Source: Escherichia phage YX22
Sequence record: OR776998
Length of the DNA: 64,000 nucleotides
Direction: 5' to 3' (one strand)
Shown: piece by piece, positions 2,607-39,787 of the stretch
Numbering within the stretch: the stretch's first letter is position 1
How the letters are laid out: the number at the start of each line of letters is the position of its first letter
Position numbers and translations under genes: made by a program
Notes under the pieces: model-generated
What the model was told of the DNA's origin: nothing
Seen by the model: only the letters and a program-made list of their open reading frames with translations
Database searches by the model: none

Positions 2607-3059
2607 TTATACACCATCAATATATTTTCTCCACTCAATAGCATTTTTCACTTCGTATCCCAGTTTGTTCAGGCGATCCAAACAAGTCTCTATGAACTTG
2701 ACTTTTGCTTTTTGTTCTTGTAACAGAACAGACAACTCCACATAGTCATCGTCTGCTTTGACCCATGTATCTAGGTCAGACTTCAGGGGGCGAACCTTCA
2801 GGGGGCGCTCTGCGTAGATGTTAGGGGGTAACTCCCCTGCATAGTAGCGGCGCAGATAGAGATCGATCTGGCGGAAGCGCCCGTTGAGAAATTCAAGATA
2901 ACGCCCCTCGCGCAGATAATGCCGCTGTACAGCCATCCAAGAGCGCCCGATTTTCAGTGAGATCTGGTCAAGGTTCATGTCTTCTGGGTCCACTGTGATC
3001 AGCGGCTCCAGTTCGTTCATGATGTCCTCGGTAGCCATTGTCTGTAGTTGTTCTTTCAT
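2607..3059 (-). CDS. UvsY-like recombination mediator (tentative)
   Basis: 150 aa, adjacent to uvsW as in T4; loose similarity (RRYYAGE, C-terminal amphipathic region) to recalled T4 UvsY. Confidence 0.45.
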   Translation of the reverse strand: MKEQLQTMATEDIMNELEPLITVDPEDMNLDQISLKIGRSWMAVQRHYLREGRYLEFLNGRFRQIDLYLRRYYAGELPPNIYAERPLKVRPLKSDLDTWVKADDDYVELSVLLQEQKAKVKFIETCLDRLNKLGYEVKNAIEWRKYIDGV

Positions 3060-3089
3060 AAAATATCCCAGCTTGTCAATGTCATAGAA

Positions 3090-3602
3090 TTATACCGCAT
3101 TTCGCGGATTAGAATCAATCGCCTTCCCACCAGATAGTGGAACCAGCTGTTGGAACTTGAAGGTCACTGTCGTCACCAGCTGAGGTACAGCTGCGTCTAC
3201 GTCCACCAGTACGTTGTCCAAAGCAGTCGGGCGGGCTTCCTCCAGCACGAGAGTGAGGCCAATCGGTCGGTTGAGGTTATCCAGCAATTCAATGGTAATG
3301 TCCTTGCTGACAGGCAAATCCTTGCCGACGTTGCTGGTAATCCATTGGTGGATCTGTAACCATGATTTCCAGTCCTCGTCTATAACGAAAGTAAATACGA
3401 CGGGATCATAGGTTAAACGCTCTGAAGGTATAGAAACCAACACGTCACCAGGAGACGGACCATCGATGCCTTCGGAGTACACCCCTGGTATACTGAAGTC
3501 GTGGATGTTACGGGTTAGGAGTACAAGGTCTCCGATAGTCAGACGCCACTTATCGGACGCCGCGAAATTAGGGTTTTCGTTCTTAAATTGTACGTTGGAC
3601 AT
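3090..3602 (-). CDS. late protein of unknown function (virion protein candidate)
   Basis: 170 aa from internal ATG 3602 with AAGGTG SD; late-type motif CAAAATATCTCC upstream; track start 3905 would overlap a + strand gene. Confidence 0.45.
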   Translation of the reverse strand: MSNVQFKNENPNFAASDKWRLTIGDLVLLTRNIHDFSIPGVYSEGIDGPSPGDVLVSIPSERLTYDPVVFTFVIDEDWKSWLQIHQWITSNVGKDLPVSKDITIELLDNLNRPIGLTLVLEEARPTALDNVLVDVDAAVPQLVTTVTFKFQQLVPLSGGKAIDSNPRNAV

Positions 3603-3873
3603 AATAGCACCTTTGCTGTGGAGATATTTTGTGACCCTGATGCGCGGGATCAGTAGATTGTTGTTGGCATGCTCGATGCTCTTGTTTACGAGCTGTCGCA
3701 TCTTTGTCACGCCAATAATTTCTGTTTCCGAACTCTGGAACCCAGAAGTGCGCACTGTACCTGTGACGTTGTCGGCCAGCGTTCCCACTTGTAACAAGGG
3801 TATGCTGGACATCATCGTGCAAGAGTTCCAGCCCTTCCAGAAGCTCGTACCTTTAGGTTGCTTTGATGAGAAC

Positions 3874-4281
3874 ATGAGCACCCTCAAGCCATACTGGAAG
3901 ACCACAATTCCTCTCCTGCGGCATGGCGATGAAGGGAAGATTCCATACCTATCAGCAAGTATTTATTACTCTCAGAATAACAGCATCATTATCACTTTTA
4001 ATCCATCATTCCATGCCAAGCTGAAGCAACACATGGTTGGGCGACTGGATACAACATCAGATATAATCGTGACGTTCAAGATCATGAATGACTCAGATAA
4101 ACCAGTACGAATCGCAACTCAGGGTGTGTTCGTTAACAACGACGCGGTTGGAAATGGGATGAGTATCTTTGAAGTTAACCCAGGGGGAACGATCTTGATC
4201 AGACTGAGTAATGTGGGTGTGAACTCCCTGCTGTTGGATGGCATCGAACCAGTGGGAGTTCTTCCGGCGCGGGAGCACTGA
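3874..4281 (+). CDS. hypothetical protein, lone plus-strand gene inside the late block
   Basis: Sub-ORF of track ORF 3466..4281; fills 680 nt with no minus-strand ORF; no convincing SD, start uncertain. Confidence 0.3.
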   Translation: MSTLKPYWKTTIPLLRHGDEGKIPYLSASIYYSQNNSIIITFNPSFHAKLKQHMVGRLDTTSDIIVTFKIMNDSDKPVRIATQGVFVNNDAVGNGMSIFEVNPGGTILIRLSNVGVNSLLLDGIEPVGVLPAREH

Positions 4282-5010
4282 TTACTTCAGCGCGTTCTTC
4301 AGATTATCGGAACCAATGCTGTTGATGACACCTCCGGCGCAGATATCTTTCGCCCACTCTGATATCACGTTGGCAAAAGAGAAGTTAAGACACTTACCAA
4401 CCATGTCTTGGATATGGGCTAACTCTGCTGCAATACCGTTCGTGATGTCTTGAGCAATAGAGGCTACTGATGCGACAGCAGTGTCGATGGCTTGAGTAAC
4501 TTCAGCAGCCAGTGCCCGAATAGCATCAAGACCAGCACTGACACCCTGAGCTACCAACTCAGCCAGCTCATTCATCTTGTTTGTGATAGTTGTGAGAACA
4601 CTTTGCATGGTGTTGATCCACTGTTTGCCGAGGTTCTGAATAACCCCAAATGCATTATTGATCAGATCACAGTTGTTCGGTTCTCGACCTATAGACTTCA
4701 GGGCGGACTTATACGACACAGATGTACCGATGCGGGAATATGCCTCGTTCACTGACTGGTCGCCATAGTTGTTCAAAGTAGTGATGCTGTTGTTGGCTGA
4801 GTTGAACATTGCTGTAGATTCGTTGAGTTTGGCTGTAGTCAACCCACCTGCCGTCAGCGCTTCCTGAATCTGCGCATTTCCGGTGTTAGCCAGTGACGCT
4901 GTAGTCGCCTTACCACTGGTGATTAACCCCTGTGAGGCGCTGCTGAGGGACGGGAGAGGATTGGTAAAGGCGTTGCCCTGTGATAGGGCGTCATAGATCT
5001 GTGCGTTCAT
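4282..5010 (-). CDS. late Ser/Thr/Asn/Ala-rich protein (capsid decoration or tail candidate)
   Basis: 243 aa from ATG 5010; late motif CTAAATACCCCC about 25 nt upstream; track start 5052 lies upstream of that motif. Confidence 0.5.
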   Translation of the reverse strand: MNAQIYDALSQGNAFTNPLPSLSSASQGLITSGKATTASLANTGNAQIQEALTAGGLTTAKLNESTAMFNSANNSITTLNNYGDQSVNEAYSRIGTSVSYKSALKSIGREPNNCDLINNAFGVIQNLGKQWINTMQSVLTTITNKMNELAELVAQGVSAGLDAIRALAAEVTQAIDTAVASVASIAQDITNGIAAELAHIQDMVGKCLNFSFANVISEWAKDICAGGVINSIGSDNLKNALK

Positions 5011-14894: not shown

Positions 14895-15608
14895 TTACAC
14901 AATTCTAATTAGCTGCCAACCCGTCGTGTTCAAACGCTCTGCGGTCGCAGTTTTCCTATGATACACAGACGGTGGTGGAACTGGAATACCCTTGTCGATG
15001 TAATCATAGAGTGCTGAATATTTAAGTCCCAACCTCTCCACATATTCACGACAGTTCCCGTGGATTTCGTGTTCTTCACCGGAAGGAGATACCAATTTGA
15101 ATCGCTTTGCATGACCGTTGTTCTTGCCCTTTCTGATTCCAGTTTCAATGCATTTTCGACTAAATGATAATTTACCTTCTTCTTTCCATTCAACCCCGAT
15201 CCGACAGCTAATGATTTCTCCTGTTTTCCACCGTGGATCATCGCAATCAACTAAACCGAGATGTTCACCAGTAGAAGTCAAAACTGCTCCGTGTTTATTG
15301 GAAAATGTGGACCCGTCTCCACCCCAGGTCTTGTTGTACCCTTTCTGAGTTGACATGTGGGTTCCGTGTTGCTTTATAAGAATGATTTCCAATTCTTTTA
15401 GATCTTCCAGGGATTTGGTCTGGGCTAACACTTGAACAGAAAAGGACTCTTCTCCGTACTTTCTTATTGCTTGGTGAATAAAGTAATCAGATCCCTTCTG
15501 AGCACTATTGCAGTGCTCCCACCACCTTTGCATAGGGTCTCTCGTCGTTATCCCAATATAGGCTTTCTGATTTACTAGATTTGTAATTTTGTAAACACTT
15601 CCGATCAT
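14895..15608 (-). CDS. GIY-YIG homing endonuclease inserted between sheath and tube genes
   Basis: N-terminal VYKITN..KAYIGIT GIY-YIG motif; 237 aa; interrupts conserved gp18-gp19 adjacency. Confidence 0.7.
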   Translation of the reverse strand: MIGSVYKITNLVNQKAYIGITTRDPMQRWWEHCNSAQKGSDYFIHQAIRKYGEESFSVQVLAQTKSLEDLKELEIILIKQHGTHMSTQKGYNKTWGGDGSTFSNKHGAVLTSTGEHLGLVDCDDPRWKTGEIISCRIGVEWKEEGKLSFSRKCIETGIRKGKNNGHAKRFKLVSPSGEEHEIHGNCREYVERLGLKYSALYDYIDKGIPVPPPSVYHRKTATAERLNTTGWQLIRIV

Positions 15609-17625: not shown

Positions 17626-17640
17626 AGATATTTAGTGATC
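17626..17640 (-). promoter_or_regulatory. late-promoter-like motif upstream of tail sheath gene
   Basis: Minus strand GATCACTAAATATC about 45 nt before ATG 17586. Confidence 0.45.
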
Positions 17641-19858
17641 ACCGTCTCAGCCATTCTTCCATAGACATACCAGAGCGTTCATCATAAACCTGAATTCCAC
17701 CGAACCCTGAGATGTTCTCCACAGAGTGAGGATCTGGCGTCGACATCATACCCCCAAATGGTAGCATCTGAGATTCTTCCATCGCAGACAACCGTCCTCT
17801 CATGTCCACAGAGATATTTGAATTGGTGAGATCACTAAACCATTCTTGTTTCACCGCCCATGCATACAACACGAGGGGCATTACACAGTCATCATGACAA
17901 CCATCATCGGCTTCATACCTTGTTCCAGTCCATACGAATGTACTGAGTTCATCTATCGTGTCCTGGTCATCTATCACCAGCATTTCACGTTCAATCAGGG
18001 CTTTCAGGTTGGCACAGCCGTTTGTGCGCACCTTCTTGTTGGTATTGATACCAGGTTCAGGGCGGCGACCACCGATTCTCTTGCCTGTACCCTTGGTATC
18101 TGTTGTGGTGAAGATGATCTCTGGATATTCAATTTCTTGGTATAGAATTGTGATTACCTGACCACCCACGTCGTTGTTGGTCTCGACTAGCATCGGGCAC
18201 GTTCCATACTTCTCACCCATATCGGCGATTGTGTACGCATACATCATTGGAGGTATCGTGTTATTTCGATACTTGGCTGCGATCTTGTGAGGATAGTCTG
18301 TGATGTCGATAATGGTCAGCACAGAATAATCCCCTTCGACACCCTTGCCTGTATCTGCGATACCCATATAGATGCGCTTAGGATCGTAGTCGTGATAAAT
18401 CTTGGTGAACTCGTTCGGCTCCTGATACAGCTTCGAGGTCATCTTGTCCAGACACTTGGCAGGTATCAGTGATCCCACAGAACCACGGAACTTAATGCCA
18501 AATTCTTGATCGAAACGTGCATCACCCAGCTTCGCCCTTTGTTTGGATTCCCAGTCTGGATCTTTGGTGTACGTTGGAACACGATACCATGGGACCTCGG
18601 TGAGTTTGAAGTCGTTGTATTGTGGGTGTTCTGGGTTCGCCTTGGTGACGATGTCGTAGAACAACCCGCGCTGACCTTTCGGCGTACTGGTCAGAATACA
18701 ACGTGAAGTCTCTGCAGATGCAATCGCCGGGAATGTAGACTCCCAGAATTCAAAGTCGTTTTCAATGAACGCCACTTCGTCCACATACAGGAGCGATACA
18801 GATCGACCACGGATGGAGTCGGAAGATGTCGCATAGGCGTAGATCTTTGATCCGTTTTCGAACTCTATCAGCGTGGAACCGAACTTCTCACAACCCTGTT
18901 GGAGGAAGAATGGCAAATCTTGATATGCTTTGCGAATACGATCTAGGATTTCAATCGCCTGCTTCTCTTTGTTCGCCAGTACTGCGATCTCTTTGTCGGA
19001 GTGGAACATCGCATACCAGAGCAGGAACGCTGCCACGACAGTCGTGTTGTGGCTGAGGAAGCCGTTGGTGTAGTAGCGCTGATCACTAGATTTCACCTGT
19101 AGGTCATACATGTGATGCGTCTCACCAGTCTGCCAAACCTCACGGATTTCTTCTGGACCTTCTGACGTCATGATGTATGACCCAGCATTCAGGTCTTTGG
19201 CAAATATCTCCTTCATTTCCGGAGTGAAGAATATATGTTCGTCGGCCACGTTAATTCGCCGCCCAGTAACAGTCACAATAACGAATTCCGCATATTTCTT
19301 CGTCTTATGCGCTGCGATAACCGGAACCCAGCCACTATCGGATTGCACAAAGTAACGTTTGCCGAAGCGGCTGTCCACGAACTTGTCATGGTTGCCAATG
19401 GTATTCAGCGGCACAGCGTGGTTGACGTCCTCGAAGCGGCTGTGAAGCTCCCCTATGGTCAGGAGCAACTGCTCTTGGCTGAGAGTATCGTAAACTGTGA
19501 CAAGCGTGTCACCTTTTACACATTTCCCAGACTGACGAGCCTGGACGACCGCATTGAATCGATAGTCCTGGAAGTCATGGAACAACTGCTTCTGGTAATC
19601 GTGCATGTCAAAGAGGATGAAGCCTTTATCGATGGTCGTGATCTTGTAGTAGTTGGCGGCGAAGTAATGGGCGTCCATCGCACACTCGACGAACTCCGAT
19701 TCTTGTTCGTCGGTTAGCATCAACTCCACACGAGGTGCACGCACAGACGGCTTGCGCATGAACGTTTGGTCCATACGCAGTCTGACGTCTTCTGTCTTAA
19801 ACCCCGTCTTGAGCGGGGCGTATTCTACATCACGCTTCTGATACGCCATTGTCTTCAC
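17639..19858 (-). CDS. gp17: terminase large subunit gp17-like, interrupted by an in-frame mini-intein
   Basis: Walker A reads QARQSGK then 159 aa then T; flanks align with T4 gp17 ATPase and nuclease regions. Confidence 0.9.
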   Translation of the reverse strand: MKTMAYQKRDVEYAPLKTGFKTEDVRLRMDQTFMRKPSVRAPRVELMLTDEQESEFVECAMDAHYFAANYYKITTIDKGFILFDMHDYQKQLFHDFQDYRFNAVVQARQSGKCVKGDTLVTVYDTLSQEQLLLTIGELHSRFEDVNHAVPLNTIGNHDKFVDSRFGKRYFVQSDSGWVPVIAAHKTKKYAEFVIVTVTGRRINVADEHIFFTPEMKEIFAKDLNAGSYIMTSEGPEEIREVWQTGETHHMYDLQVKSSDQRYYTNGFLSHNTTVVAAFLLWYAMFHSDKEIAVLANKEKQAIEILDRIRKAYQDLPFFLQQGCEKFGSTLIEFENGSKIYAYATSSDSIRGRSVSLLYVDEVAFIENDFEFWESTFPAIASAETSRCILTSTPKGQRGLFYDIVTKANPEHPQYNDFKLTEVPWYRVPTYTKDPDWESKQRAKLGDARFDQEFGIKFRGSVGSLIPAKCLDKMTSKLYQEPNEFTKIYHDYDPKRIYMGIADTGKGVEGDYSVLTIIDITDYPHKIAAKYRNNTIPPMMYAYTIADMGEKYGTCPMLVETNNDVGGQVITILYQEIEYPEIIFTTTDTKGTGKRIGGRRPEPGINTNKKVRTNGCANLKALIEREMLVIDDQDTIDELSTFVWTGTRYEADDGCHDDCVMPLVLYAWAVKQEWFSDLTNSNISVDMRGRLSAMEESQMLPFGGMMSTPDPHSVENISGFGGIQVYDERSGMSMEEWLRR
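19046..19522 (-). mobile_element. mini-intein (Hint domain, no endonuclease domain) inside TerL Walker A
   Basis: Starts Cys (CVKGDTLV), ends His-Asn followed by Thr that completes GK-T; 159 codons by arithmetic from ORF start. Confidence 0.75.
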
Positions 19859-20543
19859 CTTCTTCCTTCGGCTGCGGCTCGGCCTGAACGTCGATTACAT
19901 CTTCTTCGGGTTCAGGTCCTTTGGACGCAGCTTTCGCTGCAGCACGTTCTTCAGCACGTTTACGGGCGTCTTCGATGGTCTTCAGTAGATCACGGGAAGA
20001 CCTGGCCTGTTTACCGACGTTGACCGTGGTTGTGCCATCAGGGGACGTGGTGACCTCGACGGTTGTTTCATCTCCAGGAGGTGGCTCTCTGTCGCCCGTG
20101 ACCGCCTTGATAGTTTTCTGGTTCTCCATCAGGTCTTTGTTCAGGCCGCGCATGAGTTCACCCAACTCTTTGAAGACTGTAAAGGCACGGGGTGCTTCAG
20201 TCGTCGTCGCAAGTTTGGCTGCCTGTCCCATCATGAACATCGTGGCTTCCTGCATGGCATAAGTCGTGTCACGGATGCGTTTGTAGTCGGTGGTGGCATC
20301 AGTGTCTTCGAAGTCTGGAACCTTAGACTCCTTGGGCTTCAGCTCTTCTGGGTCCAATGAAGGAGGAAACACCACAGGCTCATACCCCGCAGGCTTTTCA
20401 CCCAACCATTCGCCTGTATCCGGATCGTAATCTTTTCCGGCCATAGGCGAGGTCTTCTCCATGACTTCTTGAGCGACCTCATCCCGCGCTTGGATAGCAC
20501 TGAGGGTGGATAATAGGCGTTCTGACATAGCACTCATAATCAA
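19830..20543 (-). CDS. gp16: terminase small subunit, gp16-like
   Basis: DTDATTDYKRIRDT..MFMMGQAAKLATT..LMENQKTIK resembles recalled T4 gp16 core; overlaps TerL start. Confidence 0.6.
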   Translation of the reverse strand: MIMSAMSERLLSTLSAIQARDEVAQEVMEKTSPMAGKDYDPDTGEWLGEKPAGYEPVVFPPSLDPEELKPKESKVPDFEDTDATTDYKRIRDTTYAMQEATMFMMGQAAKLATTTEAPRAFTVFKELGELMRGLNKDLMENQKTIKAVTGDREPPPGDETTVEVTTSPDGTTTVNVGKQARSSRDLLKTIEDARKRAEERAAAKAASKGPEPEEDVIDVQAEPQPKEEGEDNGVSEA

Positions 20544-28482: not shown

Positions 28483-28524
28483 CTTTCTGTGGTTATGGTC
28501 ATGGATTCGAGACCTCTGCCATTC

Positions 28525-28626
28525 ATGGTAGATGGTATTCAATTAGGTATGTTTAATATATCAGGTCAGACTATTACCTTAACTGCTGTATCGATTAGGG
28601 TAATGCAAACAGTAAACTCTATATAA
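28525..28626 (+). CDS. micro-ORF copy A (33 aa), antisense between tailspike 1 and the large virion protein
   Basis: MVDGIQLGMFNISGQTITLTAVSIRVMQTVNSI; differs from copy B almost only at third codon positions; no SD seen. Confidence 0.3.
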   Translation: MVDGIQLGMFNISGQTITLTAVSIRVMQTVNSI

Positions 28627-28650
28627 AAAGTATTATTAATAAGTAAAAAC
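28525..28650. repeat. ~126-nt direct repeat, copy 1 (about 94% identical to 33523..33648)
   Basis: Aligned by eye; 8 substitutions, 7 at codon position 3 of the plus-strand frame. Confidence 0.7.
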
Positions 28651-28680
28651 AACCCCATAGAAGTGGGGTTGTTTTTAAGT
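28651..28680. terminator. bidirectional terminator after tailspike 1
   Basis: AACAACCCCA-TAGAAG-TGGGGTTGTT with TTTTT (plus) and TTTAC (minus). Confidence 0.6.
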
Positions 28681-28689
28681 GATTATTAC

Positions 28690-30603
28690 TTACATAACAA
28701 CTGCGGCAGATATGTATCCTGAATCTTGATACGATCCAGAAAGGTCAAAAACTTCTAAGTTAAAAGAGTCAGGGGATGTACTTACGGCATTAATTACTAA
28801 TTTCCCTCCGCTAGTGGTATTGCCAACACTGCATAAAACAGCATAAGCAGAGGAGGGCATAGTATTAGATAGGTTGACGGTATATTTACCGGTCCCGGTT
28901 TTAGTTACAGTTGCTCCATCCGCATACACTAACGACCCCGAAATTCCATTAAAATTGATCATTGCCCGTGTACATGCACTCGACCTTTTTGCGACGGTAG
29001 ACCCAATAAATGCGTATTCTTGGGCCTTGTTAATATAAATCTTATTAACAGAAGTGTCAGGTACTTGTAAGACGTTGTCTATAACAACATTACAGGCTGT
29101 TGCTCCAGATACGGTAGAGCATCTATCTATCTCATAATTGTCGATATTAATAGCCCTTACAAAACCTATACCCCCAAATGCTGACCAGTTTTGTTTAACA
29201 AGAACACCGGAAATACCGGACAGGAAAATAAGATCGCCTGTCGTATCTTTGCTAAACGTGTTGTTGGTTATTGAAACAGAAGAAGAACGCGGTGAGTGAC
29301 TATCATCTGCAACATATACCCTGGCTAAAGAAGAAGCAGTATTCTCTTCAAAGTAGTTACCATCTACCAGTAACTGCTGTGCACCCCCGGCGACAACACC
29401 TACGTCATAGCCCGTGTTTGCTTCAAATAGAGAGTCTCTGACTATGAAATTTCGTACACTACTTGCAGTACCTGAGTCTCCGATAAGAACACCGTTAACA
29501 CCATCAAAGAAAGTACAATTATCAACTTTAACTACGTTGATATCTACCTTTGACGTTTTTACACCATTTGCACATTTAGCGAAATAGCATGAAGTTAGTT
29601 CAGCTACTCCGGAAAAATAGTCTGGGCTATCGTAATGTAAATAGACCCCATATCGAGCGTTTCTGACAACGCAATCTTGAAGTTTTAAATACCAAGCCCC
29701 ACCGAAATCAAAGCCATCAGATGATGAATCCTGGATATCCAGAAAAAGTCCAGAAATCTTAGCTCCTATCGCACCACCTTGAACCCGAATGGCGGGTGAC
29801 GCTAACCCGGTAAACTTAATTACTGAACCTGTTGTTTGGTCATTAACATGTCCAAAACTATTACCAACAATACATAGACTATCAGTGGCAGTTATGATTA
29901 AAGTAGAGCTTATAAGATAAATACCATCCGGTATGTATAAACTCTTTTTCGAATCTATTGCTGCCTGAAACGCGGCGGTATCATCGGTCACACCGTCGCC
30001 AACAGCCCCGAAGTCCTTGACTGACACCAGGTCTTTATTTTTATCATATAGTGTTCGCTTAATGGAGTTGGCCAGAGGTGACTTAAATCCGACCAGACCA
30101 GCGCCATCATCAGATGCAAGATTGATTCTCAAGGCTGCATCACCAACACTAACCCATTTGCCTAACCCAGTACCACCAGCACTTTCAGGAGTTGAGCCAG
30201 AAGAAACGGTTTTAGGTAACTCGCCATCCCAGCGATACTTACCTGTTGTATGGGTAAGCAATTCATTTTTAACATTAAGTGTAGCACCAGTGTCAAACGA
30301 CCCAGGCAATGTAACGTATTCTTCACGGGATACGGCTAATTCCCCAAGATCTATGGAACCAGCTGAATGTACAAGTACAGCATTAGTACCAAGACTTACA
30401 GCAGTAGTTCCTGCCGGAAGTACAGGTAATGAGTAAGCTCGTTGAGTAGTCTTATCGTAAATGACCTTGTAACCACCTAAGTCTACACCTACAGCAAAGT
30501 AGACTACTTCATTCTGCTTAACACCAAACTTACGGGCAATGGCTTGCTTATTGGTAAGAATACCAGTGGAGCCTTTACCACCTTGGGAGAACATCTCGTT
30601 CAT
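28690..30603 (-). CDS. tailspike 1 (637 aa)
   Basis: N-terminal module VVYF..GYKVIYD..TQRAYSLP..LGELAVSREEYVTLPGSFDTGATLNVKNELLTH shared with tailspikes 3 and 4; beta-helix-like C-terminus. Confidence 0.8.
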   Translation of the reverse strand: MNEMFSQGGKGSTGILTNKQAIARKFGVKQNEVVYFAVGVDLGGYKVIYDKTTQRAYSLPVLPAGTTAVSLGTNAVLVHSAGSIDLGELAVSREEYVTLPGSFDTGATLNVKNELLTHTTGKYRWDGELPKTVSSGSTPESAGGTGLGKWVSVGDAALRINLASDDGAGLVGFKSPLANSIKRTLYDKNKDLVSVKDFGAVGDGVTDDTAAFQAAIDSKKSLYIPDGIYLISSTLIITATDSLCIVGNSFGHVNDQTTGSVIKFTGLASPAIRVQGGAIGAKISGLFLDIQDSSSDGFDFGGAWYLKLQDCVVRNARYGVYLHYDSPDYFSGVAELTSCYFAKCANGVKTSKVDINVVKVDNCTFFDGVNGVLIGDSGTASSVRNFIVRDSLFEANTGYDVGVVAGGAQQLLVDGNYFEENTASSLARVYVADDSHSPRSSSVSITNNTFSKDTTGDLIFLSGISGVLVKQNWSAFGGIGFVRAINIDNYEIDRCSTVSGATACNVVIDNVLQVPDTSVNKIYINKAQEYAFIGSTVAKRSSACTRAMINFNGISGSLVYADGATVTKTGTGKYTVNLSNTMPSSAYAVLCSVGNTTSGGKLVINAVSTSPDSFNLEVFDLSGSYQDSGYISAAVVM

Positions 30604-30621
30604 AACAACCTCTTTGTTTTT

Positions 30622-30648
30622 CTAGTAAACCACCCCTTATGGGGGTGG
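30622..30648 (-). terminator. terminator after tailspike 2
   Basis: Minus strand CCACCCC-CATAA-GGGGTGG then TTT. Confidence 0.45.
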
Positions 30649-30660
30649 GGGAGTAGTTGA

Positions 30661-33324
30661 TTAGCTTAATGGTTTTACTTCCCATCGCTTGTCATAGTAA
30701 TGTGCAAAACCACAGTAGGATACAGACAGATGAACGATTGCATTTACTAGGCTTGCTGTAGGTAATGCAATTCTGACAAATGTTTTACCGTCACGTACCA
30801 GTTTAGTTACTGTTACCCCGGAAAGAGATTTATCACCAGCAATCATATTAGACCAGACTGCACCAGAGGCTACATTTTCCTGTGTGCTACCGGATAGCCC
30901 AAACAGAATACTGCCCCCTGATTCAGTACCAGCCAAACCATTTTTGTTAACTGGAATGATATCTGCACGCCCAGCAACGAAGCAACCATCTGGGATTTTA
31001 GTCTCTTCCCCTACAGCACAGAGAAATATATCCAAAGCCCTGTTCCATGGAACCAGTACAGTAGCTTCCTTGTGGTCAACACTCCGGAAGAACGAACTGC
31101 TATTAGAGTGAATTGCCGACAAAGTAGTGCCTGTATATGAGTTACGACCCTGTACAATATCTTCTCCATATACCCTGCCCCGGTAAAGGTTACCACGGTT
31201 ATATGTAGATATTGTGTAGGAACCATCGCTAACTTTTAAAAATTCAAAATTACTATTTAATGTAACACTACGCCCAATATACTGGTTACTTGGAGAAGTG
31301 GTATTCTCCATCAATTTGATAGCATAGTCAGAGTTAACGTAACCACTGTCAAAGATAATCCTACCAGCCTGGTACTCATTAGTAGGTAACTCAATAAAAT
31401 GAGTTACACCAGTATTCATTTTAGACTGAATCCAACAAGAAACATCTCTGAATACGATTGTTGTTTGTGCAGCAGGGGAAGCTAACTGTGAGAAGTCTAA
31501 TGCCACTGGCCCATTTATCCCTTCAATACCGAAGCCAGAGAATGAGAGGCTACGAATATCTCCATAAAATTTATGAGGTAAAATGCAACCATCTGCTGCA
31601 ATGTTGCTAGTAGCAACATACATGACAGGCAATCCATTACTGACTGGCTCATATGTAGTACGGTTAATGGCAGCTCCCCATAAAAAACCAATGTCACAAT
31701 GGTGTGCCCAAATAGATGACATATCCGTACTAGTGCTTCCATTGATACCAAAACCATAGGTACAGTCATATGCATACAAATTGGTCATAACACTAACAAA
31801 GCAAGCCATAGGCAAAGCGAACTTATAGTGGTAAAAGTCCACATCATGCACATTAAATGTCTTACCGCCACCACCTATGCCATTGCTTAAATCGAATGAA
31901 CTAATAACAAGAGGACTACCTACGTAATCAGAATCAGCATTTCGGAAAGAGAGGCGACCAATAGTAATATTGTGTCCCCATCTGGTAGAGATGAATCCAC
32001 CCTTACCTGATGTATAAATAATACTTTGTCTCTGACCAAGACCCGTAATGGATAGAGATCTGCCAGTCCAACGCTGATTGCTAATATCAATCTGTGTATC
32101 ACCAATATACATTGGTTGGGTAATTTTGATATTCAACCCATTAGCTACAGCATATGAATAGGTTGCTAACAAAGCATCCCCATCATTGTGCACACCAGTC
32201 AGGTCAGCAGCCCCCATACTTGGTGCTTTAGGATACGGACCGCCCTGAATGGTGCTGCCGTCGATATATGGGGCGTCCATCCACGCACCAAACATAGATG
32301 GGGTAACTTCGGTGCTACCACGTAAATCACGTACCCAACGTTTGCCGGATGCAGTAACAATAGTCATACCATTATCATCTGCTGATGTAACAGATGGTTT
32401 ATATACAAAATACCCGCCACCTAAATCACCGGCATTGGTTGCAATCATACCGTCAGTATGGGCTTCTACGTAAATACGTTGTTCAGCATAGGTAGGCTCA
32501 ATTGTTCGCAGTACTGCAATATTGGGGCATGTACCAATCAGCTTACTACCATCAGGCTTGCTCAGGTCTTCTCTGAGACTAGCACCAGAATTTGGGACTT
32601 CCATCAAATCTACGGTAATGTTACCTGGACTGTAGGTTAACTGACCATTAGACACAGAACTAATATAGACATTGGTCGGTAATGAAGGCAGGCCATAAAT
32701 TTTCTGAGCAGCTGCATCGAAGATAACTTTCTTGTTATCGAGTACTTGAGATGTATCCGTATTAAGAATTACCTCAGAATCTTTTACATTAGCTGAACGA
32801 GCGATTTCTTGAATACTTCGGTCAAACAACGGACTGATATTCGGTTGTTTAACAGACATTTCAGCGACTACCCAAACGCCTGCAGTCAGCGCAGTTTGTA
32901 AAGACACTTTCCCTGTCGTGCTGTCATAGGAATATTCAATTTCTGGTGTTTTGTACTCACCACCGATATAAAGAGATTGGACTCCATAAGATGTGTAATC
33001 AGGAGTGAACTCGGTTTCACCTCCTATAGCCTGAAACTTATAGATTCGAATCCCGGTTTTATAATCTTCTGGAGACAGAATCTTATCAAACAGACAGAAC
33101 ACAACGTCACCTTTGGATAATGCACACCCGAGATTCAACGTATTTCCATCGATTTCAAAGTTGTCTAACGGAACTTGCATACCACCGTTGATTGTGACTA
33201 TACCCGTGACAGGGTAGAAAGGGAGGGAGATAAACTTCTCTCCGCCCGTTGCTGTGTAAGTGTATGGAATCTGGTGCGGAGCTGTTACGACCGCTCCAAA
33301 GATGCTCTCGACGTTTCTGGTCAT
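30661..33324 (-). CDS. tailspike 2 (887 aa)
   Basis: Start at second ATG with GGGG SD; own late motif and terminator; long N-terminal region then repetitive beta-rich domain. Confidence 0.75.
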   Translation of the reverse strand: MTRNVESIFGAVVTAPHQIPYTYTATGGEKFISLPFYPVTGIVTINGGMQVPLDNFEIDGNTLNLGCALSKGDVVFCLFDKILSPEDYKTGIRIYKFQAIGGETEFTPDYTSYGVQSLYIGGEYKTPEIEYSYDSTTGKVSLQTALTAGVWVVAEMSVKQPNISPLFDRSIQEIARSANVKDSEVILNTDTSQVLDNKKVIFDAAAQKIYGLPSLPTNVYISSVSNGQLTYSPGNITVDLMEVPNSGASLREDLSKPDGSKLIGTCPNIAVLRTIEPTYAEQRIYVEAHTDGMIATNAGDLGGGYFVYKPSVTSADDNGMTIVTASGKRWVRDLRGSTEVTPSMFGAWMDAPYIDGSTIQGGPYPKAPSMGAADLTGVHNDGDALLATYSYAVANGLNIKITQPMYIGDTQIDISNQRWTGRSLSITGLGQRQSIIYTSGKGGFISTRWGHNITIGRLSFRNADSDYVGSPLVISSFDLSNGIGGGGKTFNVHDVDFYHYKFALPMACFVSVMTNLYAYDCTYGFGINGSTSTDMSSIWAHHCDIGFLWGAAINRTTYEPVSNGLPVMYVATSNIAADGCILPHKFYGDIRSLSFSGFGIEGINGPVALDFSQLASPAAQTTIVFRDVSCWIQSKMNTGVTHFIELPTNEYQAGRIIFDSGYVNSDYAIKLMENTTSPSNQYIGRSVTLNSNFEFLKVSDGSYTISTYNRGNLYRGRVYGEDIVQGRNSYTGTTLSAIHSNSSSFFRSVDHKEATVLVPWNRALDIFLCAVGEETKIPDGCFVAGRADIIPVNKNGLAGTESGGSILFGLSGSTQENVASGAVWSNMIAGDKSLSGVTVTKLVRDGKTFVRIALPTASLVNAIVHLSVSYCGFAHYYDKRWEVKPLS

Positions 33325-33339
33325 TTGAAGATACCCCAT

Positions 33340-33400
33340 AGAGGATTTGCCAATATGGGGTATTTAGTCTGAACTAATAAATTTATGAACAAAGGTATAA
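33340..33400. repeat. conserved tailspike promoter/leader cassette, copy 1 (matches 36710..36780)
   Basis: CTTGTTATACCTTTGTTCATAAATTTATTAGTTCAG..CTAAATACCCCATATTGG..TATGGGGTAT shared. Confidence 0.6.
33352..33367 (-). promoter_or_regulatory. late-promoter-like motif upstream of tailspike 2
   Basis: Minus strand GACTAAATACCCCATATTGG then TATGGGGTAT SD region. Confidence 0.5.
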
Positions 33401-33522
33401 CAAGGAGAACCAATGGAACTACAATAGTAGGTTCAGATGCCAGTACCAAAGTTCAGGGTGTAGATATAGCCAACAGGGATAACGTTTTAGCTACTTACAC
33501 ACTAGGTTCAGCAGACCCTTTC

Positions 33523-33624
33523 ATGGTGGATGGTATACAGTTAGGTATGTTCAACATATCAGGTCAGACTATTACCTTAACTGCTGTATCAGTAAGGGTA
33601 ATGCAAACAGTAAACTCTATATAA
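33523..33624 (+). CDS. micro-ORF copy B (C-terminal 33 codons of track ORF 33385..33624)
   Basis: Same peptide with I to V change; 6 of 7 differing codons synonymous. Confidence 0.3.
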   Translation: MVDGIQLGMFNISGQTITLTAVSVRVMQTVNSI

Positions 33625-33648
33625 AAAGTATTATTAATAAGTAAAAAC
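33523..33648. repeat. ~126-nt direct repeat, copy 2
   Basis: See copy 1. Confidence 0.7.
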
Positions 33649-33672
33649 TAACCCCGCCGAAGCGGGGTTTTG
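33640..33672 (-). terminator. terminator after tailspike 3
   Basis: Minus strand AACCCCGC-TTCG-GCGGGGTT then AGTTTTTACTT. Confidence 0.55.
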
Positions 33673-33676
33673 TTTA

Positions 33677-36600
33677 TTACTTCTGTTCAAGAGCAGAAAG
33701 TCTGGCTTCGATTCTTTCCAGTTTTCTTCGCTGATAAGCAGCTTCAGCAAAGAAAATTCCGTCAGGCCGCACGCCCCACTCCTCACCCTCTTCGTGAATA
33801 ACCACCTCAGTGAATACAGGCTCTTCCGTGGTGGTGACATTACCCTCCTCGTCAGTGTGTTCAACGATTTCATTGTGCGAAAATACCATATCGGTCATCC
33901 GTGGATACTTGTCATAGCACAGAACGGCATAACGACAATCCGTACTGTTTTCGTCCATCAGACCATGTGCAATGAATACATCACGAATTTGCTGAGCAAT
34001 AACCCCGAAGTGAATACGAGCTTCATTGCCTTTCAGTTGAACAGCATCTAACCACTGGTACATGATGTAGTGAACGTCACCCCAGGCATCCAGGAAAGCA
34101 TCATCAAAAACTACCGGCTCCGTTTTCTTCTCTCCGTTAGAAGTAACAATAGGGTTGCTTCCGAGGTATGCAGTGGTGAAACGGTTGCTGGGCCCACCAA
34201 GAGCAATAGCGTTATCGTTATAAGGCTTAACATCAGCAGTCTGGAACAGGTGCTCAGCTCCGTTGTAAACTATCCTGCGAGAAGCTGTGTTATTCGCACC
34301 GTAAAGCGTAATCTGTGCACCAGTAGAAGAACTGGTTCCTTCTCCACCGCAAAATATGGTGCGCTGTCCTGCTGGGTTATTAGTAGGTACAGATTTCCCA
34401 ATAAACCCATACTCGCCTTCCAGTAGCATTTCAGAGCGAATGTTATTACTGGTGCTGGCCCTAAGGGTCACATGACCTAAACCCAAATCTCCTGTAAATT
34501 CCATTGGCGCAGGGACAGTGCGAACCCCATTCGTATCAAAAAACACGGGAACAGCTCTGTCAGGTACAGCACCATATCTGAAATCCCTGGAAACACGATT
34601 GTCTGGGCCAATCTTCATTTTGTAGCAATACAAATCTGAGGGATGACCATCTGATTTGAATGGGTCTTTCGCTGAGTTATCTCCATATGTCCAGGGGTTC
34701 AGATGGTCTTCCCCACCGAACATGTAATAGATATAACTATCCTTAACAACCACTGAGCCAACACCGACTCCAGAGTTGACAATACCGCCCTGATAAATCT
34801 GGTCAGTGATATTCACCCACTGAGTATTATCCAGGTTCCAGGTGTCTAGGTTCACTCGCGTGTAGAACGTTCGTGGATAAGAAGTAAAGTATCGTTGATC
34901 AGGTACATTGGCTTCCCATTCGTTATCAGCACGCTCTGTGGCGAAAATGATTAGTTCATTACCGACTTTAGCGAACGGCAACGTAGAGTGGTGAACATTA
35001 TTAGGAAATCTGAGTGATTCCCAAGTCATGCCCAAATCATGACTACGATGCAACGAACTCCCCAAACGATCTGAACGAGTACCACGAGTTAAGACATAAA
35101 GAACGCCATCAAAATATTTAACGCAAGGCTCTGCCGCATCAGGTTCATAATCAGCAGGAATACGACGTTTTTGGTATAAACCCGGGTTATTAAACGCATC
35201 CGGGAAATACAACATGCCAACTTCACGAGGAGCAACATCACCTTGGTGATACCCCATCATGAATGAATCATTATTGATGGCGGTAAAACTATGAACTTCA
35301 GTCACCATTGGGATTAACCCAAGGCTGGTTTTACGCCACGGCGACTCATGGAACGATGTACCCATATGCCAACGGCTGGTAGAATTATTTTGGTCAAACG
35401 CCTGTTGATTTGGCGTGGTAACTGTGAAAGTGTTGCGGTCAATAACTGAAGTTACAGTCATATTCCCTGAAACTCCAGTCACCCCAGAGTTTGAGAAGTT
35501 AACAAAATCCCCAGCAAAAAGACCGTGTTCAGGGATAGTAATTACAGCCACAGGCTGGTTGGCGGCTTTAGTGATACCGCCTGTCGGATGGTAGTTACGG
35601 GACATGGGGCGATCCCACAACTCACAGGTTACCAGTGCGTTAGATGCCAATGTACGGGTCTCAATCATCGCAAAGAGACGATTACGCATCACCCCCATAC
35701 TCATGCAGTGGTAGTTAACTGTCGGATAGTCAGGATGTAGGTCGGTTAACCACTCCGGGGTTGTCCAGGTCTGTCCGTCATCCCCTGAACGAACCCAGGA
35801 TACATGCAGCCTGCTAACCCCATGTCTATCACTAGCCATGAACGGACAGTAAATAACATCGTCGTAAACGAACGCTTTATCTTGTGGCCACGCATTGTAA
35901 TAAGGGGTGTCCGTTATTTTGAACAGCTCGCCCTGAACAAATTCTTCAGAGGCATAATAAAGCGGCTGACCAGGAATACGCTCATAAACAAAACGAGTGT
36001 TGACGAATCGACTAATGTCAGGCAAGGATGTGACCTTATATGTCTTCCCATTGCCATTAATTTTCTGACCAACTGGTGCGGCGTTTAATACGCCATTAAG
36101 CGCTGAGGTGTCATCGGTGACCCCATCACCTTTTGCATTCCACCCGCGCGGGTCGAATGTGTCTCTCCATCTTGCGATCTGCAAATCTGGATATTTTGTT
36201 GCGCCATCAGGGTCAGAAAGCTGGCTTCTTAATGAAGCATCACCAACACTAACCCATGCACCAGTTCCAGTGCCACCAGTACTCCCAGGAGTTGAACCAG
36301 CTGGAACTGTTTTAGGGAATTCACCCTCCCAACGATACTTACCCGCTACATGAGTAAGGAGTTCATTTTTAACATTAAGTGTAGCACCAGTATCAAACGA
36401 CCCAGGTAAAGTCACATATTCTTCGCGACTTACGGCTAACTCCCCAAGGTCTACAGAACCAGCCGAATGAGCGAGGATTGCCTGTTCGTTCAGACTAACA
36501 GCAGTCGTTCCTGAAACAATACCTGAAGGAAGAGAATAAGCCCGTTGGGTAGACTCATCATAAATTACTTTAAATCCACTGAGATCAATACCAGCAGTGA

Positions 36601-36703
36601 AATAAACGACTTCGTCTTCTTTGACACCGAAATTTCGAGCGATAGATTGTTTGTTAACTTCTATGGAAGTGGAGCCGCGTGGTTGATTGAATTGAGAAAT
36701 CAT
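33677..36703 (-). CDS. tailspike 3 (1008 aa)
   Basis: Shares the ~150-aa N-terminal module with tailspike 1 at near identity; own late motif. Confidence 0.8.
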   Translation of the reverse strand: MISQFNQPRGSTSIEVNKQSIARNFGVKEDEVVYFTAGIDLSGFKVIYDESTQRAYSLPSGIVSGTTAVSLNEQAILAHSAGSVDLGELAVSREEYVTLPGSFDTGATLNVKNELLTHVAGKYRWEGEFPKTVPAGSTPGSTGGTGTGAWVSVGDASLRSQLSDPDGATKYPDLQIARWRDTFDPRGWNAKGDGVTDDTSALNGVLNAAPVGQKINGNGKTYKVTSLPDISRFVNTRFVYERIPGQPLYYASEEFVQGELFKITDTPYYNAWPQDKAFVYDDVIYCPFMASDRHGVSRLHVSWVRSGDDGQTWTTPEWLTDLHPDYPTVNYHCMSMGVMRNRLFAMIETRTLASNALVTCELWDRPMSRNYHPTGGITKAANQPVAVITIPEHGLFAGDFVNFSNSGVTGVSGNMTVTSVIDRNTFTVTTPNQQAFDQNNSTSRWHMGTSFHESPWRKTSLGLIPMVTEVHSFTAINNDSFMMGYHQGDVAPREVGMLYFPDAFNNPGLYQKRRIPADYEPDAAEPCVKYFDGVLYVLTRGTRSDRLGSSLHRSHDLGMTWESLRFPNNVHHSTLPFAKVGNELIIFATERADNEWEANVPDQRYFTSYPRTFYTRVNLDTWNLDNTQWVNITDQIYQGGIVNSGVGVGSVVVKDSYIYYMFGGEDHLNPWTYGDNSAKDPFKSDGHPSDLYCYKMKIGPDNRVSRDFRYGAVPDRAVPVFFDTNGVRTVPAPMEFTGDLGLGHVTLRASTSNNIRSEMLLEGEYGFIGKSVPTNNPAGQRTIFCGGEGTSSSTGAQITLYGANNTASRRIVYNGAEHLFQTADVKPYNDNAIALGGPSNRFTTAYLGSNPIVTSNGEKKTEPVVFDDAFLDAWGDVHYIMYQWLDAVQLKGNEARIHFGVIAQQIRDVFIAHGLMDENSTDCRYAVLCYDKYPRMTDMVFSHNEIVEHTDEEGNVTTTEEPVFTEVVIHEEGEEWGVRPDGIFFAEAAYQRRKLERIEARLSALEQK

Positions 36704-36709
36704 GATAAT

Positions 36710-36780
36710 ACCCCATAAAGGATGACCAATATGGGGTATTTAGGCTGAACTAATAAATTTATGAACAAAGGTATAACAAG
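36710..36780. repeat. conserved tailspike promoter/leader cassette, copy 2
   Basis: See copy 1. Confidence 0.6.
36734..36748 (-). promoter_or_regulatory. late-promoter-like motif upstream of tailspike 3
   Basis: Minus strand AGCCTAAATACCCCATATTGG..TATGGGGTATTATC ATG. Confidence 0.5.
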
Positions 36781-36805
36781 AACCCTGCCGAAGAGGGGGT
36801 TAGTT

Positions 36806-39787
36806 TTACGGGTAAGCACTCTCGAACTTACAGAACCAAGTCGTTCCTCCATCAGTTGTTGACAACCTAAAAACTTGTGTTCCAGCTGCTGTCAAAGATG
36901 GGGTACTACTTGCTAATATAACATTTGCACCAAATGTTATTGTTTTAGATGTTGTTGAATAGACAGCCAAAAGAACCTCAACATAACCAATTAGTGTATT
37001 TGTTAATACTGCTGGAGTTATTGTTACATCTCCTGTAACTGTAGCTGCGATGTAAGATGCGTCTGAAAAGTCAGGCGCATAACTTGCTGTTGGCGTCTCG
37101 AACTTTGGATTTCTTACCAATACAGGAACTCCAACATTTTTCCTGAAAATTGTACTATTGCAAACCATATCATACTCTATACCAACAAAATTCTTAGCTG
37201 CGAGTATGTTAGTAAATGTCTGGTCCGCAGAGTAAATATGAGTTATCAGCCTTGCCACCCATGCTGGTGAGTTTGAGTTTTCACACTCAATGAATGAGCA
37301 GTTGGTACTACCAACAGCGAATGGCATTAATGATGCCGTATATGAAGATAGCCCTGCGTCATTGAATGCATTCATATTCACAAAAGTCTGGCATTGAGAG
37401 AACGTATTACCGGTGGCTCCACCATCAATAAAAAAGCCAATCCCGCCGTTAATATAACCATCTACAGGATCTAAATTAGCTTTCGTGTAGTCCCATTTTG
37501 ATGGAGAATCTGCAAAACATTGATTGAAGGAATTGTTTATTGAGTTCTGTACAACAAAGCAGCATTTCATCCTTGAGTTCTGGTCAGTGACTGTATCGTC
37601 ATACATGCCCCAGTTGTGCACCTTACCAATTCTGTTATTACCACCACCACGAACCCAGGTACCAAATCGGAAATAACGACCTTCACCCATGCTAACCTGA
37701 TGATCGCTACCTTCAACAATGTGGGCTGTGCTGAGCGGATTAGTTGGTTTTAATACACCAACAGCATAAAACTTCAATAGGTGCACACCCATACCGCCAG
37801 CAATATGGATGCCATGACCATCAACGTTGGCTACGTAAATGCCTTCTAACTTGTTAGCATAGCCATCGGATATCTTAAACCCATTAACAGTTTTTGCACG
37901 GGCATCAATTAATAAGTTGCTGATATGCCCAGCGTATTGATTACCCGTCCCTTTATCGCATTTAACAGCATAGCCAGAGGAGTCTGCAACGAAGTCATCG
38001 GTGAGGTACACCCCACCGAAACCAGCATCAATGCTAACATCTCCGTGAATGTGTAGTGTCGTACTGATAGGATATTTCTTCCCATTCAGCCTGATAACTT
38101 TGCTTACAGTGTTAGGTTGTAGCCAGTCAGGATGGTTAGCAGCACTACTTGGTGCATGTTCTAAACCTGTTAAAGCTGCCGCAGCATCAATCGCATCCTG
38201 TAATGATGGATACATATCCGGGTTGACATTTATAATTTTCTTAAGCGCATTGCCAACAGTACCAGTTTCGTAATCAATTGACTTATCAAAACCTGAAAAA
38301 CCTGCTCCTGTAGGTTTAGCCAATTCTGACTTCAATGAAGCATCACCAACACTAATCCATGCGCCAACACCAACGCCGCCTGTTGTCATAAGAGTTGAGC
38401 CAGGAGCAACGGTTTTAGGAAGTGTACCATCCCAACGATACTTTCCATCAGTATGGGTGAGTAATTCATTTTTAACATTGATGACAGCACCAGAATCAAA
38501 TGTCCCAGACAATGTAACATATTCTTCACGAGATACAGCCAATTCCCCGAGATCTACAGAACCCGCTGAATGCACAAGTACAGCGGAAGAACTAAGACTG
38601 ACAGCAGTAGTACCAGGGACAATATCAGCAGGCAAGGGATAAGCCCTTTGCGTCTCCTTGTCATAAATAACTTTATACCCACTTAACGCAGCACCAACAC
38701 TAAAATAAACGACCTCTGTATCTTTAACATTGGTTACACGAGCAACTTCCCGCAAAGTATAATCAATTTGATTATAGATGTTTGGTGTTCCATTGATAAT
38801 TACAACAACTTCATCCTCTGGTTCCAGTTCTTGCGCAAGAGTGATTTTACTGGTTAATGGATCGAATGTGAATCCCAGATTTTTATACTGGCGACTTCCG
38901 TTTATATCAATGGCCGGAACATCATCAACAACGACGTCCAACGTGATTTCGGTTTCACCGCCAATCGCTGAACCCCCATTATAGACCCAGGTAATCGTAG
39001 AAGAACTAGAACCACCGCCATTACCCAATTGAATAGGAGTATATTCAATCACCTGAAGTTCTGTGTTGGCTGGCAAAGAAGGGCTGAAAGTGATTACATT
39101 CCCATCTAGTGAATATTTGGATTCCGCAAGACGTTTTCCGTCAGCATACACGTCCACGATTGTTGGTGGGGTATTGAGAGCGACAGTACTTGTTTCAGAC
39201 GCCAAAATTTTTGTAAAGATTTCACGACTGTAGACGCGACCTTGGCCAAGACCGACGCCGGATGTAATAATCCAACCTTGTTCAGGTCCAGACCAAGTGA
39301 ACGTTGCTGATACGTTATCAGTTGTTATAGCCATGTCTTCAGTGGAGCCATACAAATTATTTCCAGAAGGAGACACAGTCAATGGGTAAGTGGCAAATTT
39401 CCCATAAGCATCACAAATAGTAACGGAATCCCCAATACGCGTAGGGGAAGGGAGAACCACTGTAGATGCCCCTGTGGTATTATTAATGAGATAGCCTCGC
39501 CCTTCAGTGAGCGTTGCCGTAGAGGCATGCGGAAGGACTTCCCAGCGGATACCACCGCCACCCAGCGGCAACCATCCACCATTTTCATAGAAGCCCTCAA
39601 ATTCGTCGGAGTCGGCATTGTAGCGAACGGAAGACGGGAGTCCTGCGCTGGCATTACCCTCGGGTAAAGTCAGGACAGCATCTGGTCCATGCTCAATCGT
39701 ACCCGTGTTGAGGAGACCAGCCAAAGTAGACTGCTCTTCAGCCGCCAGACCGAGAGGGAAAACAGGCTGTGTTGGTTTATTAGCCAT
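36806..39787 (-). CDS. tailspike 4 (993 aa) with ~340-aa N-terminal extension
   Basis: Conserved module is internal (after residue ~350); start at ATG 39787; own late motif. Confidence 0.8.
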   Translation of the reverse strand: MANKPTQPVFPLGLAAEEQSTLAGLLNTGTIEHGPDAVLTLPEGNASAGLPSSVRYNADSDEFEGFYENGGWLPLGGGGIRWEVLPHASTATLTEGRGYLINNTTGASTVVLPSPTRIGDSVTICDAYGKFATYPLTVSPSGNNLYGSTEDMAITTDNVSATFTWSGPEQGWIITSGVGLGQGRVYSREIFTKILASETSTVALNTPPTIVDVYADGKRLAESKYSLDGNVITFSPSLPANTELQVIEYTPIQLGNGGGSSSSTITWVYNGGSAIGGETEITLDVVVDDVPAIDINGSRQYKNLGFTFDPLTSKITLAQELEPEDEVVVIINGTPNIYNQIDYTLREVARVTNVKDTEVVYFSVGAALSGYKVIYDKETQRAYPLPADIVPGTTAVSLSSSAVLVHSAGSVDLGELAVSREEYVTLSGTFDSGAVINVKNELLTHTDGKYRWDGTLPKTVAPGSTLMTTGGVGVGAWISVGDASLKSELAKPTGAGFSGFDKSIDYETGTVGNALKKIINVNPDMYPSLQDAIDAAAALTGLEHAPSSAANHPDWLQPNTVSKVIRLNGKKYPISTTLHIHGDVSIDAGFGGVYLTDDFVADSSGYAVKCDKGTGNQYAGHISNLLIDARAKTVNGFKISDGYANKLEGIYVANVDGHGIHIAGGMGVHLLKFYAVGVLKPTNPLSTAHIVEGSDHQVSMGEGRYFRFGTWVRGGGNNRIGKVHNWGMYDDTVTDQNSRMKCCFVVQNSINNSFNQCFADSPSKWDYTKANLDPVDGYINGGIGFFIDGGATGNTFSQCQTFVNMNAFNDAGLSSYTASLMPFAVGSTNCSFIECENSNSPAWVARLITHIYSADQTFTNILAAKNFVGIEYDMVCNSTIFRKNVGVPVLVRNPKFETPTASYAPDFSDASYIAATVTGDVTITPAVLTNTLIGYVEVLLAVYSTTSKTITFGANVILASSTPSLTAAGTQVFRLSTTDGGTTWFCKFESAYP

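Follow-up and report, generated by a model that had tools for sequence, protein, structure and literature searches.

The 64,000-nucleotide stretch of Escherichia phage YX22 analysed here (sequence record OR776998; the whole stretch is referred to as the window) carries the gene of a gp17-like large terminase subunit, TerL, which contains an in-frame insert of 477 nt between the Lys and the Thr codons of its Walker A motif (QARQSGK, insert, TTVV). The TerL precursor coding sequence lies at 17639..19849 on the minus strand and encodes 736 aa from an ATG at 19849, with Terminase_6N and Terminase_6C as the Pfam matches of its two ends. The longest open reading frame (ORF) listed for the gene is 17639..19858 (minus strand), which begins with a GTG at 19858 and encodes 739 aa. 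In near-identical phages, among them LHE287 with a TerL gene 99.5% identical, the start is annotated at the ATG 9 nt downstream of this GTG, and the sequence AAGGTGA was found 6 nt upstream of the ATG. With the ATG as start, the precursor of 736 aa would give a spliced product of 577 aa.

Three segments were distinguished in the TerL gene, all on the minus strand. The N-extein (19523..19849) comprises 109 aa from the ATG and ends with the first half of the Walker A motif, QARQSGK, with the last residue, Lys-1, encoded at 19523-19525. The insert (19046..19522) comprises 159 aa, which are residues 113-271 of the 739-aa ORF, and reads CVKGDTLV...YYTNGFLSHN. The C-extein (17642..19045) comprises 468 aa; its first residue, Thr+1 (19043-19045), supplies the second half of the Walker A motif (GK/TT, the slash marking the splice junction) and at the same time the predicted second nucleophile. 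The whole gene is read as one unbroken ORF and is not divided into two ORFs within the insert, as it would be in a naturally split intein. The first-pass annotation had placed an intein at 19046-19522, and the ORF translation agrees exactly with these coordinates and with the sequence given. Its remark that the TerL ORF is about 160 aa longer than T4 gp17 has to be corrected, since the excess over the T4-type gp17 (610 aa) is 126-129 aa; the closest intein-free relatives, of 566 and 580 aa, are exceeded by 156-170 aa. The gp16-like small terminase gene, TerS, was assigned to 19830..20531 (minus strand) by its Pfam DNA_Packaging match and the LHE287 annotation; it shares a 20-nt overlap with the start of TerL and shows the operon context. 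On the plus strand, a 160-aa ORF starting with ATG (19235-19717) lies opposite the insert and the N-extein; no supporting evidence accompanies it, and it probably results from sense-strand codon bias.

The insert is in frame and precisely missing from homologous proteins. After its removal in silico, the Terminase_6N score increased from 63.5 to 80.8 bits and the match reached the start of the profile. The spliced TerL aligned with T4-type gp17 with an E value of 2e-78 and without any gap across the junction, where it reads ARQSGKTTVVAAFL against SRQLGKTTVVAIFL in gp17. A query of 150 aa spanning the junction of the in-silico spliced TerL was found as a single uninterrupted piece of 444-450 nt in more than 2000 T4-like phages, while in the enterobacterial Ackermannviridae it was found as two pieces over 927 nt, corresponding to 450 + 477. 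The closest intein-free TerL proteins belong to Vibrio phage K368 and Aeromonas phage phiA8-29, the latter being a member of the Ackermannviridae too (Tedavirus). Both show an exact 159-residue gap at this position, and their junction reads RQSGK/TTVV(A/G)AF.

Profile searches identified the insert as an intein, with a signature well beyond what chance would produce. The insert alone matched the Pfam family Intein_splicing (PF14890) with an E value of 1.6e-8 and 35.0 bits; a weak PT-HINT match was the sole other Pfam match, and no endonuclease domain (LAGLIDADG, HNH or other) was detected in it by the Pfam scan. Compared with the PDB sequences, the insert alone gave weak matches, all of them to inteins (CatC, Pho CDC21, VidaL, gp41-1 and Mxe GyrA). 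A family profile was then built from nine diverse homologues, namely those of the window, of the Ackermannviridae phages Mooltan, Ag3, May and 3M, and of the Vibrio phage VAP7, the Delftia phage PhiW-14, the Agrobacterium phage Atu_ph07 and the Campylobacter phage CP21. This profile matched 11 PDB entries, every one of them an intein (11/11), with VidaL (5.8e-11), gp41-1 (2e-10) and CatC (3.2e-8) as the best matches and Pho CDC21, Spl DnaX, Mxe GyrA and DnaE among the others, and 8 of the 9 members matched Intein_splicing in Pfam. When the family profile was compared with all six-frame segments of the window, only the TerL insert was found and no other HINT domain. A HINT fold of the insert would follow from this homology to solved inteins.

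The residues expected for splicing are present and conserved. Cys1 (19520..19522, minus strand), the predicted first nucleophile in block A, is Cys or Ser in 12 of 12 aligned family members and is the sole Cys of the insert. Block B, A93-D94-E95-H96 (19235..19246, minus strand), contains a His96 that is invariant in the alignments. Blocks F and G, H137-M-Y-D140-L...Y-Y-T152-N-G154-F-L-S157-H158-N159 (19046..19114, minus strand), contain invariant columns of the profile alignment, including the penultimate His and the terminal Asn, and form the stretch that aligns best with VidaL, gp41-1 and CatC. Distant members of the family are merely 32-36% identical to the insert, and the positions kept across them are Cys/Ser1, His96, His137, Leu141, Thr152, Gly154, Ser157, His158 and Asn159; at +1 the family has Thr, except for Ser in CP21. 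The first nucleophile, the block B His, the terminal His-Asn and a Cys, Ser or Thr at +1 are thus conserved in 12/12 aligned homologues. Since Cys1 is present and the Trp-Cys-Thr triplet is absent, the element is assigned to the canonical class 1. A class 3 intein, defined by the absence of an N-terminal nucleophile together with a WCT triplet of block B Trp, block F Cys and block G Thr (PMC5050341), was considered and ruled out on the same grounds, position 140 of block F being Asp and not Cys. The length of 159 aa falls within the expected range of mini-inteins (about 130-200 aa), and only about 40 residues lie between His96 of block B and His137 of block F.

Taken together, we are confident that the insert is a mini-intein of the canonical class 1 that splices in cis and occupies the classic P-loop site in a large terminase of the T4 type. 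A mini-intein in the P-loop is also what the first-pass annotation had proposed, pointing to the Cys at the start, the His-Asn at the end and the Thr that follows, and to a length that leaves no room for an endonuclease. The signature proved to be conserved across the family and the Pfam scan agreed on the lack of an endonuclease. The two comparisons that it had put forward as checks, a profile search of the insert against Hint/intein families and an alignment of the exteins alone to T4 gp17, both came out in favour of an intein, as given above. It had also said that either the lack of a Hint match or intein-free TerL proteins retaining the segment would count against it; a Hint/intein match was obtained, and the intein-free TerL proteins lack exactly these 159 residues.

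The course of splicing can be proposed from these residues. TerL would be translated as a 736-aa precursor in which the Walker A GK and T are parted by 159 residues. The intein would adopt a HINT domain, in which Cys1 attacks the carbonyl of Lys-1 to form a thioester, aided by His96 of block B; Thr+1 would then attack the thioester to give a branched ester; Asn159 would cyclise, aided by His158 and block F, and release the intein; and an O-to-N shift would generate the native Lys-Thr bond. The product would be a 577-aa TerL with an intact P-loop, QSGKTT, the junction region covering ARQSGKTTVVAAF. Since the Lys and the Thr of the GKT are parted in the precursor, the precursor should not bind or hydrolyse ATP, and from the sequence it may soundly be concluded that the packaging ATPase activity would depend on splicing. 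We infer the splicing chemistry and its need for packaging from the intein family and from the viability of the lytic phages: because about 300 phages with the insert in this essential P-loop are cultured and lytic, splicing must presumably occur.

Support for the activity of the family comes from phages in which the TerL gene is broken within the intein. In the cultured Delftia phage PhiW-14 (GQ357915; L007), TerL is contained in two ORFs, 2425-2892 and 2941-4698, which are 48 nt apart. The first ORF, unannotated in GenBank, encodes the TerL N-terminus up to ARQMGK and then 43 intein residues (CVQGDTEIKL...), while the annotated gp17 (2941-4698) starts within the C-intein and continues through ...GVASHN/TTTVAAF. 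The Agrobacterium jumbo phage Atu_ph07 (L008) is split alike, with ORFs at 2483-2854 and 2851-4674 and the junctions ...GRQLGK/SVHK... in the first ORF and ...GILSHN/TTVAAA in the next; its intein has Ser as first residue and, in block F, Cys where the window has Asp. By sequence, both are naturally split inteins at the same GK/T site as in the window, broken about 42 residues into the intein. Since TerL is split inside the intein in these phages, only trans-splicing could rebuild the P-loop, which argues indirectly but strongly for the activity of this intein family. An "atypical" break point of the same kind was described for a gp17-like terminase in metagenomes (PMC2677866), and the TerL split inteins AceL-TerL, GOS-TerL and Cat of this family trans-splice in vitro (PMC11766414).

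The intein of the window is an already published element of sister phages and an ordinary member of a well-known kind. The 2013 genome announcements of the Salmonella phages Maynard and Marshall stated that the large terminase, unlike that of T4, is interrupted by an intein, which was detected by InterPro Hint and splice-site signatures (PMC3868846, PMC3853055), and the orthologous 159-aa intein was reported for Salmonella phage Mooltan in 2019 (PMC6486243). The GenBank record of Mooltan contains a mat_peptide "intein" on precisely the homologous 477 nt (L002, 2501-2977), and the RefSeq mat_peptide "intein" of Maynard and Marshall (YP_008772116.1) is 76% identical in aa to the window over the same 159 aa. 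The Lys/Thr position in the P-loop has been called a "classic" intein insertion site (PMC5050341), and terminases are listed among the common intein hosts (PMC4760082). The extent of the intein across phage records is under-appreciated. It was found by tblastn in 309 phage records, most of which are labelled merely "terminase large subunit" and a few "pretoxin HINT domain protein". No intein annotation was found in the records of the window's own lineage, and the word intein was absent from the Ackermannviridae papers that the literature search returned, a 2024 review of the family among them. Extein identity reached 80% or more in about 275 records and intein identity 60% or more in 278, and the endonuclease-less intein is essentially fixed in the enterobacterial Ackermannviridae.

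The intein and its host gene have discordant histories. By the identities of its TerL gene (LHE287 99.5%; RPN242, A221, AV101 and others 98-99%; Shigella phage Ag3 about 87.5%), the window is placed as an Agtrevirus-like member of the Ackermannviridae (ViI-like phages). The exteins are 90.8% identical in nucleotides to those of Ag3 (Agtrevirus) and 80.1% to those of PhiSH19 (Kuttervirus), while the intein is 78.0% identical to that of Ag3 and 93.1% to that of PhiSH19. The same relation was found across the database, where the intein DNA was 93% identical to 84 Kuttervirus records (CBA120, EP75, PhiSH19 and others) and about 78% to Agtrevirus and Limestonevirus records, while the adjoining 1146 nt of the C-extein were 90-92% identical to Agtrevirus, 89% to Limestonevirus and about 80% to Kuttervirus. 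Using as informative sites the positions that tell Ag3 from PhiSH19, a Kuttervirus-like recombinant tract was delimited approximately at 19128..19592 (minus strand): the window is PhiSH19-like at 105 of 120 such sites inside the tract and Ag3-like at 303 of 407 elsewhere in the gene (Fisher p 2e-47). The tract spans the last 45-65 nt or so of the N-extein and the first 390 nt or so of the intein, with its 3' end inside the intein, ahead of the conserved block F/G region, and the remainder of the gene is Agtrevirus-like.

Exchange of this kind is also seen within Kuttervirus, where two intein alleles occur: the identity between PhiSH19 and Mooltan is 72.5% for the intein, against 91.0% for the exteins. 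In Salmonella phage ISTP3 (L012, 2174-4384), the 5' region of TerL and the intein form a fine-scale patchwork of PhiSH19-type and Mooltan-type alleles, which indicates repeated recombination within Kuttervirus in this region. Between the alleles, dN of the intein exceeds that of the exteins 16-fold to more than 100-fold, and the intein dN/dS stays at 0.03-0.2. This ratio indicates purifying selection on the intein, and alleles of long standing that are under constraint and are exchanged but do not decay. The pattern resembles gene conversion between alleles when phages that both carry the intein infect the same cell, and not homing into an empty site. Intein alleles pass between genera in short recombination tracts, independently of the terminase in which they lie. 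Base composition was uninformative as to a foreign origin, since both the GC content of the intein (49.7%, compared with 48-52% in the exteins) and its GC3 fall in the extein range.

The ordinary reading is that such an intein is a trapped selfish element. Alternatively, it might splice and in addition have been co-opted as a conditional switch or post-translational delay, which keeps the packaging ATPase/nuclease inactive until splicing and so times the onset of packaging, in response to temperature, redox conditions or association with TerS or the portal. Such a function would account for the near-fixation of an intein that has no homing endonuclease in essentially all enterobacterial Ackermannviridae, and for its purifying selection despite the lack of an endonuclease; it has also been argued that P-loop inteins may be selectively retained (PMC4760082). 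However, an intein that lacks an endonuclease should also stay fixed once empty alleles have disappeared and precise deletions seldom occur, and purifying selection is likewise what a trapped element would show when there is no empty allele left to recombine with. The single Cys leaves no internal disulfide trap, and phiA8-29, K368 and T4, all intein-free, package DNA. We therefore regard the switch as unlikely, though it is the best of the alternatives.

It is considerably less probable that the insert is a degenerate, non-splicing HINT-derived domain which is kept in the mature TerL, or one which only cleaves, so that TerL would consist of two chains. Several observations weigh against a splicing intein, some of them in favour of such a domain. 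The 35.0 bits of the insert are slightly under the Pfam gathering score of 35.8; the Thr of the block B TxxH motif is replaced by Ala in all Ackermannviridae members and by Ser in CP21; and about 30 residues of the insert (24-57) are without an equivalent in gp41-1 or VidaL. These residues coincide with the break point of the split relatives, and VAP7 has a further 20 residues there. An AlphaFold2 model of the insert, made from a 3-sequence alignment, had a pLDDT of 40.8 and was unusable, so that it lends the HINT fold no structural confirmation. In the literature searched, neither a splicing experiment nor a junction peptide was found for any Ackermannviridae TerL, and the name "pretoxin HINT domain protein" given to some GenBank homologues would suit such a domain. 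On the other hand, the residues for all four splicing steps are conserved among members that are about 32% identical, the separation of Lys and Thr in the P-loop is incompatible with a functional Walker A motif, and close relatives lack exactly the insert. Moreover, the split homologues at this site would have no P-loop unless they trans-splice, and the nearest solved relatives are active inteins. We therefore maintain that the insert is a splicing mini-intein.

That the insert is an artefact, whether a chimeric assembly or a nucleic-acid element, such as a group I intron, mistaken for coding sequence, is hardly credible: nothing specific speaks for it apart from the antisense 160-aa ORF, while the frame runs through without interruption, about 300 phage genomes that were sequenced independently share this 477-nt insert, the substitutions are codon-structured with a dN/dS well below 1, and the GC content does not deviate from that of the exteins.

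The genes around TerL are arranged in the T4-like order gp13-gp14-gp15-TerS-TerL-sheath-tube-portal. A free-standing GIY-YIG homing-endonuclease ORF (14895-15608, minus strand, 237 aa; Pfam PF01541, E value 5.4e-9) separates the genes for the tail sheath and the tail tube, about 2 kb downstream of TerL. LHE287, otherwise about 98% identical, has unrelated DNA with two short hypothetical ORFs at this place (L016, 14441-15663); the slot is therefore variable for mobile elements. A role of this endonuclease as driver of the intein exchange was considered and is unsupported, as the intervening 3.5 kb or so, including the C-extein, are Ag3-like and the ORF is therefore not linked to the tract. Apart from this slot, the window differs from LHE287 over a large block only in the tailspike/tail-fibre module (about 28500-38300), where there is no match or only patches of 80-93% identity; this would fit the swapping of host-range modules known in the Ackermannviridae.

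The practical value of these results is modest, and the current understanding of inteins and terminases is unchanged. About 300 Ackermannviridae records, including candidates for biocontrol and therapy, mostly hide the intein under "terminase large subunit", and TerL-based phylogenies, protein clustering and size predictions silently take in a mobile element with a separate history. With hosts in E. coli and Salmonella, these phages would offer a convenient natural system for asking whether P-loop inteins regulate their host enzyme. The remaining interest lies in the discordant history of intein and host gene and in the link between a cis intein and the naturally split TerL inteins.

Among known systems, the TerL intein of the Kuttervirus phages Maynard, Marshall and Mooltan is orthologous to that of the window, with the same host gene, the same GK/T site and the same length of 159 aa; the window differs in carrying a CBA120/PhiSH19-type allele in an Agtrevirus-type TerL. 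The P-loop inteins of mycobacteriophage TerL1-a (Kelley et al. 2016, PMC5050341) likewise lie between the invariant Lys and the nucleophilic Thr of Walker A, but their hosts belong to Terminase_1 and that of the window to Terminase_6, and many of them are endonuclease-bearing or class 3. In the same study, inteins of Terminase_6 were located at the C-motif only. An intein in a Campylobacter phage TerL was reported in 2012 (PMC3322345). The Campylobacter inteins (IBB_35, CP21) are homologous HINT domains, about 32-34% identical, and likewise interrupt a T4-like TerL in its P-loop, but they sit three residues upstream of the site in the window (PRQ/SSKS) and have Ser at +1. Unlike that of the window, the Campylobacter TerL gene is further broken by a second element and an endonuclease-like ORF. 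In CP21 (L006, 2494-6339), the TerL with its cis intein is followed by a second break after GFSC/CLENT..., by a 421-aa ORF and by another TerL fragment that starts about 2.3 kb downstream, in a "fractured gene" arrangement.

The nearest relatives with structures or biochemistry are the atypically split inteins of phage TerL proteins, AceL-TerL, GOS-TerL, VidaL and the consensus Cat (PDB 6dsl, 6vgv), with which the split intein of a gp17-like terminase described by Dassa et al. (2009) is grouped. Their blocks B, F and G are very similar to those of the window (...YYTNG..SHN). Unlike them, the intein of the window is contiguous and in cis, has Thr and not Cys at +1, and carries a linker of about 30 residues (residues 24-57) where its split relatives break. 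The intein of the window is a contiguous relative of the atypically split TerL inteins that are used in protein engineering.

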